Source: Pedosphaera sp. (GTDB lineage Bacteria; Verrucomicrobiota; Verrucomicrobiia; Limisphaerales; SIBH01). Taken from it: a DNA stretch of 22,290 nucleotides. The position numbers and the translations under genes were made by a program. Below, in pieces: positions 3,160 through 22,290 of this stretch (within the stretch, counting starts at the first letter, position 1; each line of letters opens with the position of its first letter). The stretch lies in the NCBI GenBank assembly GCA_031414955.1, contig JANOQV010000019.1, positions 1-22,290 on the forward strand. Reading direction: 5' to 3'. The notes beneath the pieces were generated by a model that ran no database searches, was not told where the DNA came from, and worked only from the letters and a program-made list of their open reading frames with translations.

Positions 3160-4158
3160 TCAGCCCGTGCTCGTGGGCTTGCGGCGCTGCCGCCAGGCTT
3201 CGATCTGAATCAACCCATTGGCTGCGGTGATCAGGCCGCCGCCGATGACCATTTGCCGGGTGAGTTGTTCATTGGCGTAGTCGATGGCGGCAAAATACGA
3301 GAGCCAGCCGGGCAGAAAACCGGCCAGCAGCGAGGCGAAGATCGGTTCCGCGCAATAGATCAGTCCGGCCTCGGTTGCGCTCACGTGGGGTTGCCAGAAA
3401 TTCATGAGCGAGTAGGCACCGAGGGTGCAGGCGACGATCAGCGCGCCGGCCAGAGCCAACGCCGCCGGGGATTGATAGGCGGCGAGGATGGCGCCGGGGC
3501 TGGGCGCGGTAAGCAGCACGACGGGGGCGATGATCACAGCGATGGTTCCAAACATCACCACGGTGAAATTACCAACGCGATTGCCGGCATAGCCGGGGCG
3601 CTCCAGCCAGAGGATTTGCCCGGTGAAGAAAATGGTCGCGAGCAAAGTCTCCGCCTCGCCCCGGCCCAGTTTGAGCCCGCGGCCGTTGAAACCGGAGAGA
3701 ATGGCCACGCCGATCAGCACCATCAGAATGCTGAGGATGACGACCGGCCCCGGCAGGGCGCGCTGCCGCAGCGCGACCCACAATGGAATGAGCAGGCAGG
3801 TGAACTGGGTGAGAAAGGCAGAAGTCGAGGCCGGCGTGTGCCCCAGCCCGTCCATCTGGAACAGGATGCCCAGCCCGCCGAACACGCCCAACCCGAGACC
3901 CTGCGCAAATTCCGCCCGGGTCAATTGCCGCAATGGTTGCAAGGAGCAGAGCGCGATGATGATTCCCGCCACCCCAAACCGCACGACGGTGGCGATGGAG
4001 GCGAGGAAAAGTGGGGGGCTCGGAACCAACTTTTCCTGGGCCAGCCAAAGCGCCTTCACGCAGGGGAAGCTGATGCTCCACAGGGCCGTGGCGACGACCA
4101 GCCAGAGGCAGGCGCGGAGGTGCCGGGAGGGATCGCGGGCGCGGAGTTCCTGGCTCAT
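3160..4158 (-). CDS. EamA/DMT-family membrane transporter
   Basis: 332 aa, about 10 hydrophobic helices in two repeats (LWSISFPCVK, RF, SAFL, EPIFA). ATGA overlap with the rnc stop. Confidence 0.88.
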   Translation of the reverse strand: MSQELRARDPSRHLRACLWLVVATALWSISFPCVKALWLAQEKLVPSPPLFLASIATVVRFGVAGIIIALCSLQPLRQLTRAEFAQGLGLGVFGGLGILFQMDGLGHTPASTSAFLTQFTCLLIPLWVALRQRALPGPVVILSILMVLIGVAILSGFNGRGLKLGRGEAETLLATIFFTGQILWLERPGYAGNRVGNFTVVMFGTIAVIIAPVVLLTAPSPGAILAAYQSPAALALAGALIVACTLGAYSLMNFWQPHVSATEAGLIYCAEPIFASLLAGFLPGWLSYFAAIDYANEQLTRQMVIGGGLITAANGLIQIEAWRQRRKPTSTG

Positions 4159-4880
4159 GCCGGGGCGTTCGGATCCAGGGGCGGAGTGGTGTTACGCAGG
4201 ATCAGAAGCGCGGCGAGCGCGGCGTCGCTCTCGGCGGCGCGCTTGCTTTTGCCGCGCCCCCGGGCCAGTTCGTGGCCTTCATGATAGACCGCGCACTCGA
4301 AATGGCGGTCGTGATCCGGGCCGCTGGCCTCGATCAGTTCATAACGCGGCGCTTGGTTGGATTTCGCCTGGAGCATCTCCTGCAACTCGCCCTTGGGATT
4401 GCTCAGGTTGGGCAGCGCGCAGAATTCACCGAAGGATTCACGGAAGCAGCGCAGCACGAACTGGCTCGCGGCCTCGTATCCGCCATCCAGATAAATGGCT
4501 CCGGTCACAGCCTCGTAGGCGTCCCCCAGGGCGGAGGGCCGTTCGTGACCGCCGTGGCCCAACTCGCCCCTGCTCATGATCAGAAACTCGCCAAGCCCCA
4601 GGGCGCGGCTTTGTTCGGCCAGCGTGCGCTGATTGACGAGCTGGGCGCGCGCCTTGGTCAGCGGACCTTCGCCAAAATCCGGGAAGCGGTTGTAAAGCTC
4701 GCGCGTGATGGCCAGTCCGAGCACCGCGTCACCGAGGAATTCCAGCCGCTGATTGTGGGGCAGAGTGACCTCCGATTCGTGCGCGATGGACGGGTGGGTG
4801 AGCGCGAGGCGCAGCAAGCCCGGATCGTGGAAGGTGTAACCAAGCCTGACTTCGAGCGGGCTGAAATCGGTCTCGGTCAC
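4155..4880 (-). CDS. rnc: Ribonuclease III
   Basis: Signature NQRLEFLGDAVL, DAYEAVTGAIYLD and C-terminal dsRBD (NPKGELQE...GPDH...GKSKRAAE). GTG start. Confidence 0.97.
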   Translation of the reverse strand: MTETDFSPLEVRLGYTFHDPGLLRLALTHPSIAHESEVTLPHNQRLEFLGDAVLGLAITRELYNRFPDFGEGPLTKARAQLVNQRTLAEQSRALGLGEFLIMSRGELGHGGHERPSALGDAYEAVTGAIYLDGGYEAASQFVLRCFRESFGEFCALPNLSNPKGELQEMLQAKSNQAPRYELIEASGPDHDRHFECAVYHEGHELARGRGKSKRAAESDAALAALLILRNTTPPLDPNAPA

Positions 4881-8380: not shown

Positions 8381-8527
8381 GAAAAAGCACCAAGCACCAA
8401 GCACCAAGTTCCAGATAAACACCAAGCACCGAAATCCAATTCCCAAGCATCTGCGCCCCAAGAATCGACCTGAAAGCCAGCAGCCCATTGGTGCTTGGTG
8501 TTTGGAGCTTGGAGCTTGGTGCTTTTC
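8381..8527. repeat. Heptamer tandem-repeat element with inverted arms, filling the livM-livG gap
   Basis: (AAGCACC)x3 at 8385-8405 plus degenerate copies; five complementary units GGTGCTT/GGTGTTT/GGAGCTT at 8490-8524; ends GAAAAAGCACCAAGC and GCTTGGTGCTTTTC. Confidence 0.9.
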
Positions 8528-9529: not shown

Positions 9530-9937
9530 TCAACTCGGCCACGGATTGAGCGTAGGCGCGGAGCGGAAGTCGCTCGTGTTCCGCGTCACGACGGTCAGGC
9601 CGTGCGCGAGGGCGATGGCTTCGATGATGGAATCCCAGAGCGACTGCGGCTGCCGTTTCAACGCGGCGCTGTGCTGCTGCTGGCCCCAGGCCAGCGCGGC
9701 GTCCGTATCCCACGGCACGACATGCTCGTTCCACTCAGCCAGGAAATGATTCAGCTTGTGCAGCAGGTCTTTCCGGCGTGCGCCGGACTCCGCGTGGATT
9801 CCGTCGGCAATTTCGGCCAGCACCGGAACCGGAATGCCGCAGTCCGCGCCATTCGCCACCAGCCATGCGCGGACTTTCGGCTCGGGCCGTGGTTTCCAAG
9901 TCTCCGAGATGACGTTGGTGTCGAGCAGGAATTTCAT
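9530..9937 (-). CDS. vapC: PIN-domain type II toxin (VapC family)
   Basis: 135 aa, N-terminal FLLDTNVISE, E in VLAEI, DSIIEAIALAHGLTVVTRN.SDF, C-terminal NPW. Confidence 0.92.
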   Translation of the reverse strand: MKFLLDTNVISETWKPRPEPKVRAWLVANGADCGIPVPVLAEIADGIHAESGARRKDLLHKLNHFLAEWNEHVVPWDTDAALAWGQQQHSAALKRQPQSLWDSIIEAIALAHGLTVVTRNTSDFRSAPTLNPWPS

Positions 9938-10095
9938 TAGCGCTTGATCTTCACTGGGCCGAGCGAGCGCAACGCCTCAAAGAGATTGGCCGGACGTTTC
10001 GCGCGCGACGTGCGCACGCTGCGCACCGGCTTGATCGCGGATTTCACCAGCGGATGAAACGTGCTGGAAAGTGGCTGCGCTGCGTCCGTTTTCAT
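9937..10095 (-). CDS. 52-aa basic ORF, putative cognate antitoxin of VapC (absent from the ORF track)
   Basis: MKTDAAQPLSSTFHPLVKSAIKPVRSVRTSRAKRPANLFEALRSLGPVKIKR; its stop overlaps the vapC start as TAATG. Confidence 0.65.
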   Translation of the reverse strand: MKTDAAQPLSSTFHPLVKSAIKPVRSVRTSRAKRPANLFEALRSLGPVKIKR

Positions 10096-15451: not shown

Positions 15452-15570
15452 GAAAACCCAAAACCCAAAACCCAAATAAATTCCAACGGCCCAAATTCCA
15501 AAACCAGGCGTTCGCGCTCCCATGGGAGTTTGGAATGGAGAGCTTTTTTGGGATTTGGGATTTGGATTTT
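15452..15570. repeat. Second heptamer tandem-repeat element with inverted arms
   Basis: (AAAACCC)x3 at 15453-15473 then AAATTCC-type units; GGGATTT GGGATTT GGATTTT at 15550-15570; an AT-rich island in GC-rich DNA. Confidence 0.85.
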
Positions 15571-18781: not shown

Positions 18782-20038
18782 TCAATCGTGCTGTTTCAGC
18801 GCGGGCAGTTTGTCGGTCAGAGGGATCTCTCCGCGCAACAGTCTTCCACCTGCACCGGTCAGGCGCAGATAGAAGTCGCTGGGCAGTCCTTCGTAGCCCA
18901 CGAACTTCACCTTGCCGGTGTCGGGCGTGTCGTTCGTACATTTGAAGATCGCCGTGGCTTCGTCCACTTCGTCGAACATCGCCACGTAAATCATCTCCGC
19001 GCCGACCCGTTTGGCGGCGGTGAACTGTGACCAGAGGAACTCGCCCTTGCGCCGCGGAATGAAATCGAGCGGGCCGCCTTGCATGTTGTGCCAACTGAAA
19101 CCGGGGAACACGACCGGGAGATAATCCAACCTCCGCTCGCGGCACCACGCGAGGTCGGGCTTGAGCAGTTGCGTCTCGTGCCGGGTGACTTCCGGTTGCG
19201 TCGTGTAGCGCCCCACCGTCCACGGACTGATCACGTCGGCGAGCTTGAGCAGTTCGTGCAGGGCCGGGTCTTTCAAGGAGTCGTTCTTCAGCTCACGCCA
19301 GCAAGTCGGCACTCCCAGCATGACCGTGCAGCCGTCGCTCTTGAGGAACTCGACCAGTTGCCGGCATTCGGCGAGCGTGTAGCGGCGGTTGTCGTTGAAG
19401 CCGATTCCCCACACCGCCACCAACGGTTTCCCACGGTGCTGGAGATACGCTGTGCTCTCGGTCACGCGCTGTTCACTGCGCAGGGTGCGCCAGTCCTTCA
19501 TCACGGACTGAATGCGGTTGGAGCCAAGCCCGCTCAGATCATACATCACCACGAAGGCGCGTCCGGCCTGCTCCGCGCCCGTGCGGCAGTGGGCGAGCAC
19601 CGTGTTGTTGTGGCGAAGCGCGCGCGGGTCGCCCAGGTCGGTGATGAAACGCTGCACGAACGCGCCGTCGATTCCGTAGTCGCGCATCCACTCAAAGTGC
19701 CGCCGCACCGTCGCCTGCTTAAACGAGCTGAAGACCTCGGCCGACCGGCCATTGGTGTGCTTGAAACCGGTGGCGAAGCGCTCCTCGGGGCCGAGTTCCG
19801 AGACATCCGGCCAGAGATCGATCTTGGCGTTGCTTGGTCCGAGCGCACCGCGGCCTTTCGTCCAGTGAACCCAACTTCGTTCCGCGCCATCGCCTTCGCA
19901 GTTGAACCAGCCTTGGTAGCCGCACATCACCTTGCCGGTGAGCGTGGAAGTGTCCACGCGCGCCGCCACCGGCGACGCGGCTCGAAGTGTCGGCAGGAAC
20001 AGGACGACCAGCAATGCCAAGAACCGTCGGGCGCTCAT
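18782..20038 (-). CDS. Secreted glycoside hydrolase, GH71/GH99-like
   Basis: Signal peptide; KVMCGYQGWF, WMRDYGIDG.FVQRF, MYDLSG, SPWTVGRY, PVVFPGFSW.N, YVAMFDEVDEATAIFK. Confidence 0.85.
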   Translation of the reverse strand: MSARRFLALLVVLFLPTLRAASPVAARVDTSTLTGKVMCGYQGWFNCEGDGAERSWVHWTKGRGALGPSNAKIDLWPDVSELGPEERFATGFKHTNGRSAEVFSSFKQATVRRHFEWMRDYGIDGAFVQRFITDLGDPRALRHNNTVLAHCRTGAEQAGRAFVVMYDLSGLGSNRIQSVMKDWRTLRSEQRVTESTAYLQHRGKPLVAVWGIGFNDNRRYTLAECRQLVEFLKSDGCTVMLGVPTCWRELKNDSLKDPALHELLKLADVISPWTVGRYTTQPEVTRHETQLLKPDLAWCRERRLDYLPVVFPGFSWHNMQGGPLDFIPRRKGEFLWSQFTAAKRVGAEMIYVAMFDEVDEATAIFKCTNDTPDTGKVKFVGYEGLPSDFYLRLTGAGGRLLRGEIPLTDKLPALKQHD

Positions 20039-20042
20039 CGGT

Positions 20043-20981
20043 TCAGAAATAACCGGCCTTCTTGCGGTCTTCCATTGCTGCTTCGCTGGCCTTGTCGTCG
20101 GCCCGAGAGCCGCGTTCGGTCACGCGGGCGGCGGCGATTTCGGCTACGATGTCATCGACGCTGTAAACCTGCGACTCGATCATGCCGGTGCTGATCATGT
20201 CCGCGATGGTGCGGACGCGGACGATGAGTTTCTGGACTGAATCCTTGGCCGTGGGGCGCGCGCCGGCGTAAGGGTCGGGCTTGGTCGCATCGGTGTGCGG
20301 CGGCGGCACCGGGATCCATTGACCGCCCTTGCGGAAGCATTCGCGCTCGTGGCTGAAGTAGATGGTCGGGACTTCGAGGTTCTCCTTCTTGATGTATTCC
20401 CACACGTCCATCTCGGTCCAGTTGGAGAGCGGGAAGACGCGCATGTTCTCGCCCTGGTTGAGCCGCGCGTTGTAGAGGTTCCAGATTTCCGGGCGCTGGT
20501 TCTTCGGATCCCACTGGCCAAAGCCGTCGCGGAAACTGAAGAAACGTTCCTTGGCGCGCGCCTTCTCCTCGTCGCGCCGCGCGCCGCCGATGCAGCAATC
20601 AAATTGAAACTCCTCGATGGCCGCGAGCAGGGCCGGGGTCTGCAACTGGTTGCGGCTCACAATGCCGGGCTTGGGCGTGGCAAGTCCGCGCGCGATGACG
20701 TCATCCACGGTGCGGATGAGGAGCTTCGCGCCGAGTTGCTTGGCGCGCCGGTCGCGGAAATCGATCAACTCGGGGAATTCGTGCCCGGTCTCGATGTTGA
20801 GAAACGGCATCGGAATGTCCGACGGGCGGAAGGCCTTCTCGGCGAGCCGCAGCAGGCAGATGGAGTCCTTGCCGCCGGAGAAGAGCAGCACCGGCCGCTC
20901 GAACTCCGCCGCAACCTCGCGCATGACGTGAATCGCTTCGGTTTCGAGATACTGAAGATGGTCAAGATGGTAGCTGCTCAT
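20043..20981 (-). CDS. cysD: Sulfate adenylyltransferase subunit 2
   Basis: PP-loop LFSGGKDS, GGARRDEEKARAKER.FSFR, WDPKNQRPE.W, RVFPLSNWTE, MEDRKKAGYF. Confidence 0.97.
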   Translation of the reverse strand: MSSYHLDHLQYLETEAIHVMREVAAEFERPVLLFSGGKDSICLLRLAEKAFRPSDIPMPFLNIETGHEFPELIDFRDRRAKQLGAKLLIRTVDDVIARGLATPKPGIVSRNQLQTPALLAAIEEFQFDCCIGGARRDEEKARAKERFFSFRDGFGQWDPKNQRPEIWNLYNARLNQGENMRVFPLSNWTEMDVWEYIKKENLEVPTIYFSHERECFRKGGQWIPVPPPHTDATKPDPYAGARPTAKDSVQKLIVRVRTIADMISTGMIESQVYSVDDIVAEIAAARVTERGSRADDKASEAAMEDRKKAGYF

Positions 20982-21008
20982 TTGTACACGAATTATTCGG
21001 AAAAGATT

Positions 21009-21040
21009 TTAGACACGGATTTCACGGATTGACACGGATT
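21009..21040 (+). repeat. Left arm of the 32-bp inverted repeat flanking the GxxExxY gene
   Basis: TTAGACACGGATTTCACGGATTGACACGGATT, three CACGGATT units. Confidence 0.95.
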
Positions 21041-21042
21041 CT

Positions 21043-21417
21043 TCAGAGGACGACGCGCTTCCACTCCAGGGAGTCCGCGCCGAAATTTACGAGCAGGCCG
21101 ACGCGCAATTTGGACGCGGCCAGATAGTTGAGAACCTGCTTCACATGAGAGTCGGTCAGCTTTTCGACGGCCTTGGCCTCGAAGATGATTTTGTCCCAGA
21201 CCACGAAGTCAGCGAAATAGAAGTGTGGGAGAAGAACGCCTTTGTAGCTGATTTCAAATTTCTTCTCGCGCTCGAAGGTGATGGTGCTCCGGCTCAACTC
21301 CACGACCAGCGCATCCTTGTAGATGACTTCATCATGCCCCTTGTCGAGTTCCCGATGAATCTCCATGCAGAGTCCAATGAGCCGGTGCGTCTCCTCGCGA
21401 TAAAGCAGTTCAGCCAT
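21043..21417 (-). CDS. GxxExxY protein (PD-(D/E)XK nuclease superfamily)
   Basis: 124 aa from ATG 21417; GHDEVIY motif, ADFVV...IIFEAKAV, QVLNYL, GLLVNFG. Confidence 0.93.
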   Translation of the reverse strand: MAELLYREETHRLIGLCMEIHRELDKGHDEVIYKDALVVELSRSTITFEREKKFEISYKGVLLPHFYFADFVVWDKIIFEAKAVEKLTDSHVKQVLNYLAASKLRVGLLVNFGADSLEWKRVVL

Positions 21418-21424
21418 GTTTCCT

Positions 21425-21456
21425 AATCCGTGAAAATCCGTGAAATCCGTGTCTAA
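21425..21456 (-). repeat. Right arm of the 32-bp inverted repeat flanking the GxxExxY gene
   Basis: Reverse complement TTAGACACGGATTTCACGGATTTTCACGGATT, 30/32 identical to the left arm; contains the cysH TAG stop. Confidence 0.95.
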
Positions 21457-22118
21457 CTTTTTGCGACCGCCTTGCCTCCCCACGCCGCGTGCAATCCACA
21501 CTCGCGCTTGTCATCCGCCTTCGCGGGGTCGAAGTAATCCCACTCGTTCGGCAGGTGGTGCTGCTTCAAGTAGGCTTCCATCTCCGCGTCGCTCCAGTAA
21601 AAGACCGGGCTGACTTTCAGGGAACCAAAATTTCCGTCGTGCGACACAACGTCGAGTCCGGCGCGATTCGGGTTCTGCACTTTGCGCAGCGCGGTGATCC
21701 AGACGGTGGGCGCGAGTTCCTTCATGCCGCGCTGGAACGGCTCCAGTTTCATCACCGTGCTGAAGGCTTTGATGCGCTCCTCATTCTCCGGCGTTGGCTC
21801 CGGCATTCCGCCGTGAACGGCGTCGTAGTGCGCGGCGGTCAGCTTTGGAATGTAAGCCTGGATGTTCAGCTTGAGCTGCGCCTTGAGCTGCTCGGCGTGC
21901 TTGTAAGTGGCCGCGCGGTTGTAACCGTGATCCACCCAGAGCACCCGGATGTCCGGCTGCACCTGTGTGACGAGATGAAGAATCACCGCTTCGTAAGGGC
22001 GATAATTCGTCGAGACGATGGCGCGGCCGTTCGCCTGTGCGATGGCCCACTTCACGATGTCGAGCGCGGGCTGGTCGCGCAGTTCGGCATTGGCCTGGGT
22101 GATTTGTTCGGGAGTCAT
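21453..22118 (-). CDS. cysH: Phosphoadenosine phosphosulfate (PAPS/APS) reductase
   Basis: WVDHGY, KLEPF, WITALR..Q...R, KVSP.FYW, C-terminal RECGLH; lies upstream of cysD. Confidence 0.92.
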   Translation of the reverse strand: MTPEQITQANAELRDQPALDIVKWAIAQANGRAIVSTNYRPYEAVILHLVTQVQPDIRVLWVDHGYNRAATYKHAEQLKAQLKLNIQAYIPKLTAAHYDAVHGGMPEPTPENEERIKAFSTVMKLEPFQRGMKELAPTVWITALRKVQNPNRAGLDVVSHDGNFGSLKVSPVFYWSDAEMEAYLKQHHLPNEWDYFDPAKADDKRECGLHAAWGGKAVAKS

Positions 22119-22136
22119 TTCGTGTTCAGTAAAAAA

Positions 22137-22289
22137 TCAGTGCTTGGGAAAACTGGATGTGGTCGGGGGCGTTGGCTCGGGACTTTGCAGCAAGTCCACG
22201 AGTCCCCGGTGATACGCGATCACGAGCGCCGCGCCCGCGATGATGAATCCAACCGCCGGCAACGCCAGGCAGGCCGGACCGAAGCGCAT
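22137..22289 (-). CDS. 3' end of a probable membrane protein running off the window
   Basis: Open frame to the edge: MRFGPACLALPAVGFIIAGAALVIAYHRGLVDLLQSPEPTPPTTSSFPKH; TGA lies 18 nt before the cysH start. Confidence 0.55.
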   Translation of the reverse strand: MRFGPACLALPAVGFIIAGAALVIAYHRGLVDLLQSPEPTPPTTSSFPKH

Positions 22290-22290
22290 G

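Follow-up and report, generated by a model that had tools for sequence, protein, structure and literature searches.

A small GxxExxY nuclease-fold gene between inverted word arrays in the cysH-cysD operon of Pedosphaera sp., a possible slow selfish cassette

Gene-less inverted arrays of short tandem words (in Geobacter and Xanthomonas) and cassettes of the ribosomal RNA intervening sequence (IVS) type are both known in print, according to the parts of that literature consulted here. We describe a cassette from Pedosphaera sp. (Verrucomicrobiota) in which a gene for a 124-residue GxxExxY protein lies between inverted word arrays at the cysH-cysD junction. The stretch analysed, hereafter the window, is the whole of positions 1 to 22,290 of contig JANOQV010000019.1 (GenBank assembly GCA_031414955.1). 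The cassette stands outside every family whose defining enzyme or location was testable, and would work most like the REPIN/RAYT systems, with a different enzyme.

REPIN/RAYT systems (Bertels and Rainey 2011, PMC3116915), in the sections consulted, comprise many extragenic, gene-less hairpins in distinct groups, each with its own enzyme gene, and hairpins occur within or beside existing hairpins. Dispersed hairpin groups matching the enzyme locus are also present here, with 92 short word-hairpins, three of them own-word. Compared with that description, the Pedosphaera enzyme has a 124-aa PD-(D/E)XK fold and is not an IS200/605-related tyrosine transposase, the gene sits in the loop, the arms are tandem 8–11-nt words whereas REPs are palindromic, and cassette clades stick to particular operon junctions across families. 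The 23S rRNA IVS of Coxiella (PMC4990558, seen in part) is alike in its length of ~430–450 nt, ~30-bp stem, tandem repeats and single open reading frame (ORF) in the loop, and the cysH-cysD junction also houses TIGR02436 genes (23 intact and one apparently broken among 120 junctions). The terminal stem around a small ORF is present, but the cassette lies between two protein genes and not in rRNA, its nuclease-fold cargo is under purifying selection, and its arms have no RNA-strand bias. Terminal inverted repeats, as in insertion sequences and miniature inverted-repeat transposable elements, are present too.

The gene-less arrays of Geobacter and Xanthomonas, in the published portions seen, are likewise intergenic inverted pairs of tandem 7–9-nt words at variable distance, and the published class 2 consensus, when reverse-complemented, gives the CACGGAGA-type word flanking another GxxExxY clade; unlike the cassette, they are called regulator sites or G-quadruplexes and have no enclosed gene family in those portions, although the supplements may list genes. 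The seg and mob genes of phage T4 (PMC2988022, seen in part) are similar as lone nuclease genes between conserved genes, with site fidelity and patchy presence, but they are phage-borne and of the GIY-YIG or HNH type, and the part seen describes no inverted arrays or gene-less derivatives. A link between GxxExxY and flanking repeats was not found in the open-access library searched (subscription journals and bioRxiv supplements lay outside this scope), and a term search of a 2026 intergenic-feature preprint returned no mention of GxxExxY.

Across loci the gene and its arms remain together, each protein clade with its own word and its preferred junctions, and relatives have the cassette whole or gutted, have something else in its place, or lack it. 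We put at about even the chance that it is a slow, REPIN/RAYT-like selfish cassette, using a different enzyme, reading its own words and decaying to gene-less hairpins. The locus comprises the following features:

21425 to 21456, minus strand: upstream arm (5' in the mRNA), three CACGGATT words at spacings of 9 and 10 nt, including the cysH TAG (sequence, inverted-repeat search)
21421 to 21424, minus strand: AGGA, a candidate ribosome-binding site immediately inside the upstream arm (inferred from the sequence)
21043 to 21417, minus strand: GxxExxY gene, 124 aa, predicted minimal PD-(D/E)XK fold (profile search, alignment, structure model)
21009 to 21040, plus strand: downstream arm (3' in the mRNA), inverted copy of the upstream arm at 30/32 (inverted-repeat search)
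20984 to 21008, plus strand: degenerate outer array with ACACGAATT at 20986–20994 (sequence)
21453 to 22118, minus strand: cysH, PAPS/APS reductase family, upstream flank (profile search, with scores under the equivalog cut-offs for the reductase assignment)
20043 to 20981, minus strand: cysD, sulfate adenylyltransferase small subunit, downstream flank (profile search)

The cassette occupies 448 bp of a 6.5 Mb assembly (62% GC), and its 32-nt arms, complementary at 30/32 positions and separated by 384 nt, form the longest inverted repeat within 19800–22290. CACGGATT is found at offsets 5, 14 and 24 in each arm; gaps of 2 nt and 7 nt separate the arms from the GxxExxY stop and ATG, respectively, and the upstream arm contains the cysH stop (TAG, 21453–21455). 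The initial annotation had given this anatomy of arms, words, spacings and shared stop, and all of it is confirmed, including the extra unit at 20986–20994, whose array is likely the relic of a second downstream arm; similar relics occur in several relatives. An assembly artefact is rejected because a contig from one sequencing run (which may be of the source sample) covers 20894–21558 with zero differences, and because the same cassette recurs in many genomes. Profile search of the cassette recovers TIGR04256/PF13366 only, with no recognised transposase and no HUH tyrosine transposase (RAYT), and no Rfam family matches it. A sigma-70-like match overlaps the downstream arm (one found against 0.3 expected) and is not used as evidence.

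The arms are a general feature of the family. Among the closest 80 of 144 homologues found, mostly Verrucomicrobiota records, 73 are preceded by a forward array and followed by an inverted one, whereas control windows 800–1000 nt away contain such a pair in 0/63 cases. In the more distant loci of the order (110, the higher-scoring part of 418) an inverted flank match scoring at least 26 is present in 99 and in none of the shuffles, the score counting pairing with adjacent hairpins too; arms had been expected at other GxxExxY loci, and are there. Word class mapped on the protein tree requires 20 changes against a shuffled mean of 55 and minimum of 49, for the 86 of 110 loci that could be labelled; most of the 24 omitted loci have other clear words. 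The host genome contains two further GxxExxY genes with arms of different words, and a distant GxxExxY-like match (G000:C117:12823-13110) without visible arms. Of 151 genomes surveyed in the order, 119 have GxxExxY genes, with 418 matches or ~2.8 per genome, and 32 have none above the cut-off.

The cysH-cysD junction was compared in 120 loci (the 110 better-scoring of the cysH loci present in 146 of the order's 301 genomes, plus 13 from a first search, less three without a downstream cysD). Six allele classes are present, mixed within families and between sister genomes. The window-type cassette is found at 12 junctions in ten families, and one further junction (G268) has an in-frame, internally deleted GxxExxY copy with both arms intact. 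Four-helix-bundle genes are of two kinds, a short one at 16 junctions, its arms mostly 7-mer, and a long one at seven, with 8-mer-type arms, plus one more apparently broken; the TIGR02436 identity is confirmed for five of these proteins and assigned by similarity for the others. Proteins of the long clade (L161, L175 and L200) have ~170 aa and an acidic extension at the C-terminus, and their genes lie at cysH-cysD in six families. We know of no nuclease motif in the four-helix-bundle genes. A gene-less hairpin lies at 15 junctions, its arms almost identical across three families, and 68 have nothing above threshold; eight of these 68 are overlapping stop-start junctions, some retain remnants of half an arm, and in about five rows the gene ends are uncertain. 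By eye, this one site shows at least seven word families. Empty and alternative alleles, the mark of mobility sought in the initial annotation, thus exist among relatives, and a strictly vertical fixed gene is rejected on these patchy states. Since a genome has ~2.8 GxxExxY matches and thousands of junctions, finding 13 among 120 at a single site greatly exceeds chance, in a comparison for which the site was picked because it is filled and the related genomes are non-independent. An additional cysH copy in the host genome (G000:C102:87183-87773), 96% identical in protein and truncated by the contig end, is either a duplication or contamination (estimated at 5.8%).

Other junctions are used in a similar way. 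The 80 close homologues are distributed over cysH-cysD (32), a second main junction that we take, by recognition, to be cimA-like to valS (27), three minor slots (8) and elsewhere (13). Proteins of the second slot form a derived group, in which the word has changed to GACGCGAATT, and other GxxExxY clades recur at their own junctions across families. In ten genus members the slot at C301, presumably nuoJ-nuoK from its peptides, is a clean overlapping stop-start in five, holds a GxxExxY cassette in two (G000 and G007) and other palindromic inserts in three. Two loci at the equivalent slot (L358 in G009 and L362 in G008) have a near-identical 280-nt REP-like palindrome insert unrelated to the word arms.

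The GxxExxY protein matches TIGR04256 at 134 bits (cut-off 35, E 2.7e-39) and PF13366 at 123 bits (cut-off 22). Among 49 aligned homologues E30, D70, K82 and Q94 are invariant and E80 and Y98 are present in at least 90%; we take these to be catalytic and RecB-type motifs (E...D...ExK...QxxxY), as in Cas4/RecB enzymes. A structure model built from this alignment has a predicted local distance difference test score (pLDDT) of 95.9, compared with only 35 from the single sequence. Its top structural match is Cas4 SSO0001 (PDB 4ic1; Foldseek E 1e-4, Z 8.1, root-mean-square deviation 4.9, 101 residues aligned), and other PD-(D/E)XK enzymes such as lambda exonuclease and Hjc match at similar middling scores, so that the superfamily is clear and the subfamily is not. 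From the model, membership of the PD-(D/E)XK nuclease superfamily with a Cas4/RecB-like fold is clear, and nuclease activity is predicted. Unlike SSO0001, the protein is ~80 residues shorter, with one cysteine and no four-cysteine Fe-S set, and no cas gene is found among the immediate GxxExxY neighbours. A sequence search for solved structures found no relative, and an Atlas search returned the same family only; a junction-resolvase reading was not retained, being only a lead from a non-significant T7 endonuclease I profile hit (E 0.33). Purifying selection is strong, with a median ratio of nonsynonymous to synonymous substitution (dN/dS) of 0.07 for 34 cys-slot copies, taken over the 238 of 561 pairs that are unsaturated, against 0.12 for cysH and 0.10 for cysD. 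In the part of the literature seen, PDDEXK_3 is listed with function unknown and multiple transfers (PMC3424549), and a reverse transcriptase survey names GxxExxY once, as a cas4-like neighbour.

A genome-wide map of word arrays, as proposed in the initial annotation, shows gene-less hairpins dispersed through the genome. A permissive census, made without a shuffle control, finds 106 inverted word-array pairs, of which 92 are shorter than 350 bp and 84 have a 7-nt period; several of the 14 longer pairs join neighbouring hairpins. Gene-less hairpins of the cassette's own word occur on C149, C193 and C281. On C149 and C193 they are nested within another hairpin's loop; this points to insertion into existing hairpins, and could account for the many unrelated inserts that gather at one junction. 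The flanks of the C149 and C281 hairpins differ in the five genus members searched, and orthologous empty sites are not alignable. By crude ORF calls the 92 hairpins lie between co-directional (25), convergent (31), divergent (4) or unresolved (32) genes, numbers too noisy to weigh. Two gene-less hairpins of 7-nt words lie in the window itself, at 8390–8519 (CCAAGCA-type, with dozens of genome copies) and ~15455–15570 (CCAAAT-type). The genome also has four TIGR02436 genes (on C32, C217, C137 and C241); inverted 7-mer arrays flank the copies on C137, C217 and C241.

The history of the cassette is closely tied to that of its operon. Only eight slot changes are required on a poorly resolved protein tree of 83 rows. 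For 34 copies the GxxExxY tree shares 7/31 splits with the cysH+cysD tree (null 0.3), eight with cysH and four with cysD; the cysH and cysD trees share 6/31 with each other (34 loci), with several families scattered, which suggests that in this order the cys operon has been heavily recombined or transferred. Removal of third positions reduces the shared splits to three, and a difference in GC content at third codon positions falls at the deepest of the shared splits. In approximately unbiased (AU) tests a six-member GxxExxY clade is rejected on the cysH+cysD data (p 0.0002), and its members share the outer word GACACGAATT. In a genome of another family (G073) RecA is 87% identical to that of the window's genome, cysH 94% and GxxExxY 91%; with both above RecA, the cys block likely moved sideways. 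Correlation with the flank declines with distance in a co-conversion test on the cysD side only, from rho 0.34 to 0.06–0.10. In the assembled contigs of four sequencing runs no own-strain circle or empty allele is seen; contig joints lacking the gene, or all of the cassette, occur at 85% likeness and are probably from other organisms. Two RNA-labelled runs give no usable signal. Frequent random jumping is rejected by the few slot changes and the tree congruence, and from these comparisons the cassette appears to be long resident, carried mainly by its operon, swapped occasionally and jumping rarely.

We consider it improbable that the arms are selected as an RNA stem in the cysH-cysD message, cut by RNase III or looping the cargo out, with the gene a passenger as in ORF-bearing 23S IVSs. 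The arms can give a duplex of -49 kcal/mol, the same junction houses four-helix-bundle (S23p-type) genes, and RNase III excises the Coxiella IVS, whose 28-bp stem, in the part seen, includes tandem heptamers (PMC4990558); the duplex is, however, equally stable on either strand, and the cassette has no Rfam family. In folding, the whole 506-nt region gains modestly over shuffles (z -2.16). Over 73 pairs of arms, variable letters within the word match from arm to arm in 81–100%, pairing of the spacer letters stands at 41%, 15% and 19% (below permutation for the second and third), and G-U-compatible mismatches number 53 against 52 A-C, or 35 against 26 in an ungapped count on 48 arm pairs. The first spacer does co-vary in the second main slot (64% vs 35%, p 0.005), and one cys-slot position has 12 G-U against 0 A-C, but another position of the arms has 0 against 9. 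Since the spacers are free and G-U equals A-C, inverted arrays of protein-binding sites in DNA appear to fit the arm pattern better than an RNA-selected helix. Nor is a passenger expected to hold a dN/dS of 0.07 and all of its catalytic residues. The mRNA stem around the ORF that the initial annotation envisaged can form, but RNA-specific selection has left no sign.

A free-standing homing endonuclease, which would cut cassette-less operon alleles within cysH or cysD coding sequence and be copied in through recombination of the flanks, the arms protecting or regulating it, is about as improbable as the RNA stem. Slot fidelity (the eight changes among 83 proteins, and the recurrence of other clades' slots across families), patchy presence combined with purifying selection, the one incongruent clade and the decay of flank correlation on the cysD side are all in its favour, and T4 seg/mob genes are intergenic and co-convert their flanks, in the part seen of that paper (PMC2988022). 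Against this, the cysH side has no distance decay, no GxxExxY match occurs in 50,697 phage records while homing in bacterial chromosomes needs rare DNA transfer, and the clade-specific words with free spacers, the ~90 gene-less hairpins and the four-helix-bundle cassettes are left unexplained. Less probable still is a domesticated host module, in which GxxExxY and four-helix-bundle proteins would bind the arrays throughout the chromosome or transcriptome as regulators or organisers and hairpins would tune downstream genes. Strong purifying selection agrees with it, as do the near-identical arms of junction hairpins in three families, and the paired three-unit TCTCCGTS arrays of Geobacter are described as global regulator sites in the part seen of Aklujkar et al. 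2009 (PMC2700814). Such a module fits poorly with 68/120 junctions lacking a recognisable cassette, with at least seven word families interchanging at one site, with content that differs between sister genomes, and with the 32/151 genomes without GxxExxY above the cut-off.

If the cassette is the slow selfish element that we consider about evenly likely, the predicted nuclease would bind its cognate word arrays in DNA and cut at the arms, close to them or at a target hairpin; host repair would then complete insertion just past a stop codon or inside an existing hairpin, leaving the operon unbroken. Internal deletion would then leave gene-less hairpins, which erode; new junctions would rarely be colonised, the cassette travelling with a conserved operon and sometimes being swapped between operon copies. 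At somewhat less than even odds, we further suggest a distinct class of prokaryotic mobile elements with a Cas4/RecB-like nuclease of 124 residues as their sole enzyme, which would read a clade-specific tandem word code on the two inverted arms and insert past stops or into hairpins. This class would have seeded the gene-less 8–11-mer hairpins of many genomes and would have the four-helix-bundle (IVS) cassettes as a parallel branch.

Several observations count against the selfish reading. Binding, cutting and movement by the GxxExxY protein are predictions from sequence, and its model has no obvious separate DNA-binding domain. The match of word to clade is also expected from linkage alone, and the word classes were defined after viewing 30 of the loci. 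The 7/31 shared splits, comparable to the six between cysH and cysD, indicate mostly co-descent with the operon, and only one of five AU tests rejects, for a group chosen after viewing the trees. In the 45 loci, out of 80, whose two arrays both lie within 70 nt, target-site duplication does not exceed permutation (34 have none, and the mean length is below permutation, p 0.74), although old insertions may have lost it; the initial annotation, noting neither a transposase nor a clear duplication, agrees with both profile search and permutation. Of the genomes with the 11-mer gene-less hairpin at this junction, only 2/6 encode a close cognate protein, against 6/29 of the others, in incomplete assemblies, and the many CCACGGATG-type hairpins of the genome have a word found on none of its four GxxExxY matches. 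Four-helix-bundle genes occupy the same architecture. In other phyla, where breadth rests on eight plasmid-collection loci, an inverted repeat exceeds shuffles in three (Sphingomonas fabD-fabG, Bernardetia, and Bacteroides after radA). The proposal of a minimal mobile or selfish element in the initial annotation is partly supported, by the word-protein match and the allele series, with the element an old operon-bound resident and not a frequent jumper; the match of words to clades fits both a protein that would recognise its own ends and the RAYT/REP analogy, but the cognate protein is not clearly enriched with gene-less hairpins.

A 49%-identical GxxExxY gene on a Treponema saccharophilum replicon (L373) has a single inverted ACACGGATT word, the same as the window's, that falls under the shuffle threshold. 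Elsewhere in the window a PIN/VapC-type gene (9530–10095, minus strand), with a short upstream ORF as its probable antitoxin, sits among genes resembling a branched-chain amino-acid ABC transporter operon. The ORF at 4155–4880 (minus strand) presumably resembles RNase III, and we regard its presence as coincidence.

GxxExxY genes are common in this order, yet they are named by only three papers in the open-access library searched and have no assigned function. The pairing of clade and word, together with the series of full, gutted, gene-less and empty alleles, offers a direct substrate for testing. If the selfish reading is true, it would provide an origin for the long-noted tandem-word inverted repeats of bacteria and tie them to the rRNA IVSs. 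Should the enzyme suffice by itself to move DNA, it would rank as an unusually small sequence-specific mobiliser, one that comes in many natural specificities.
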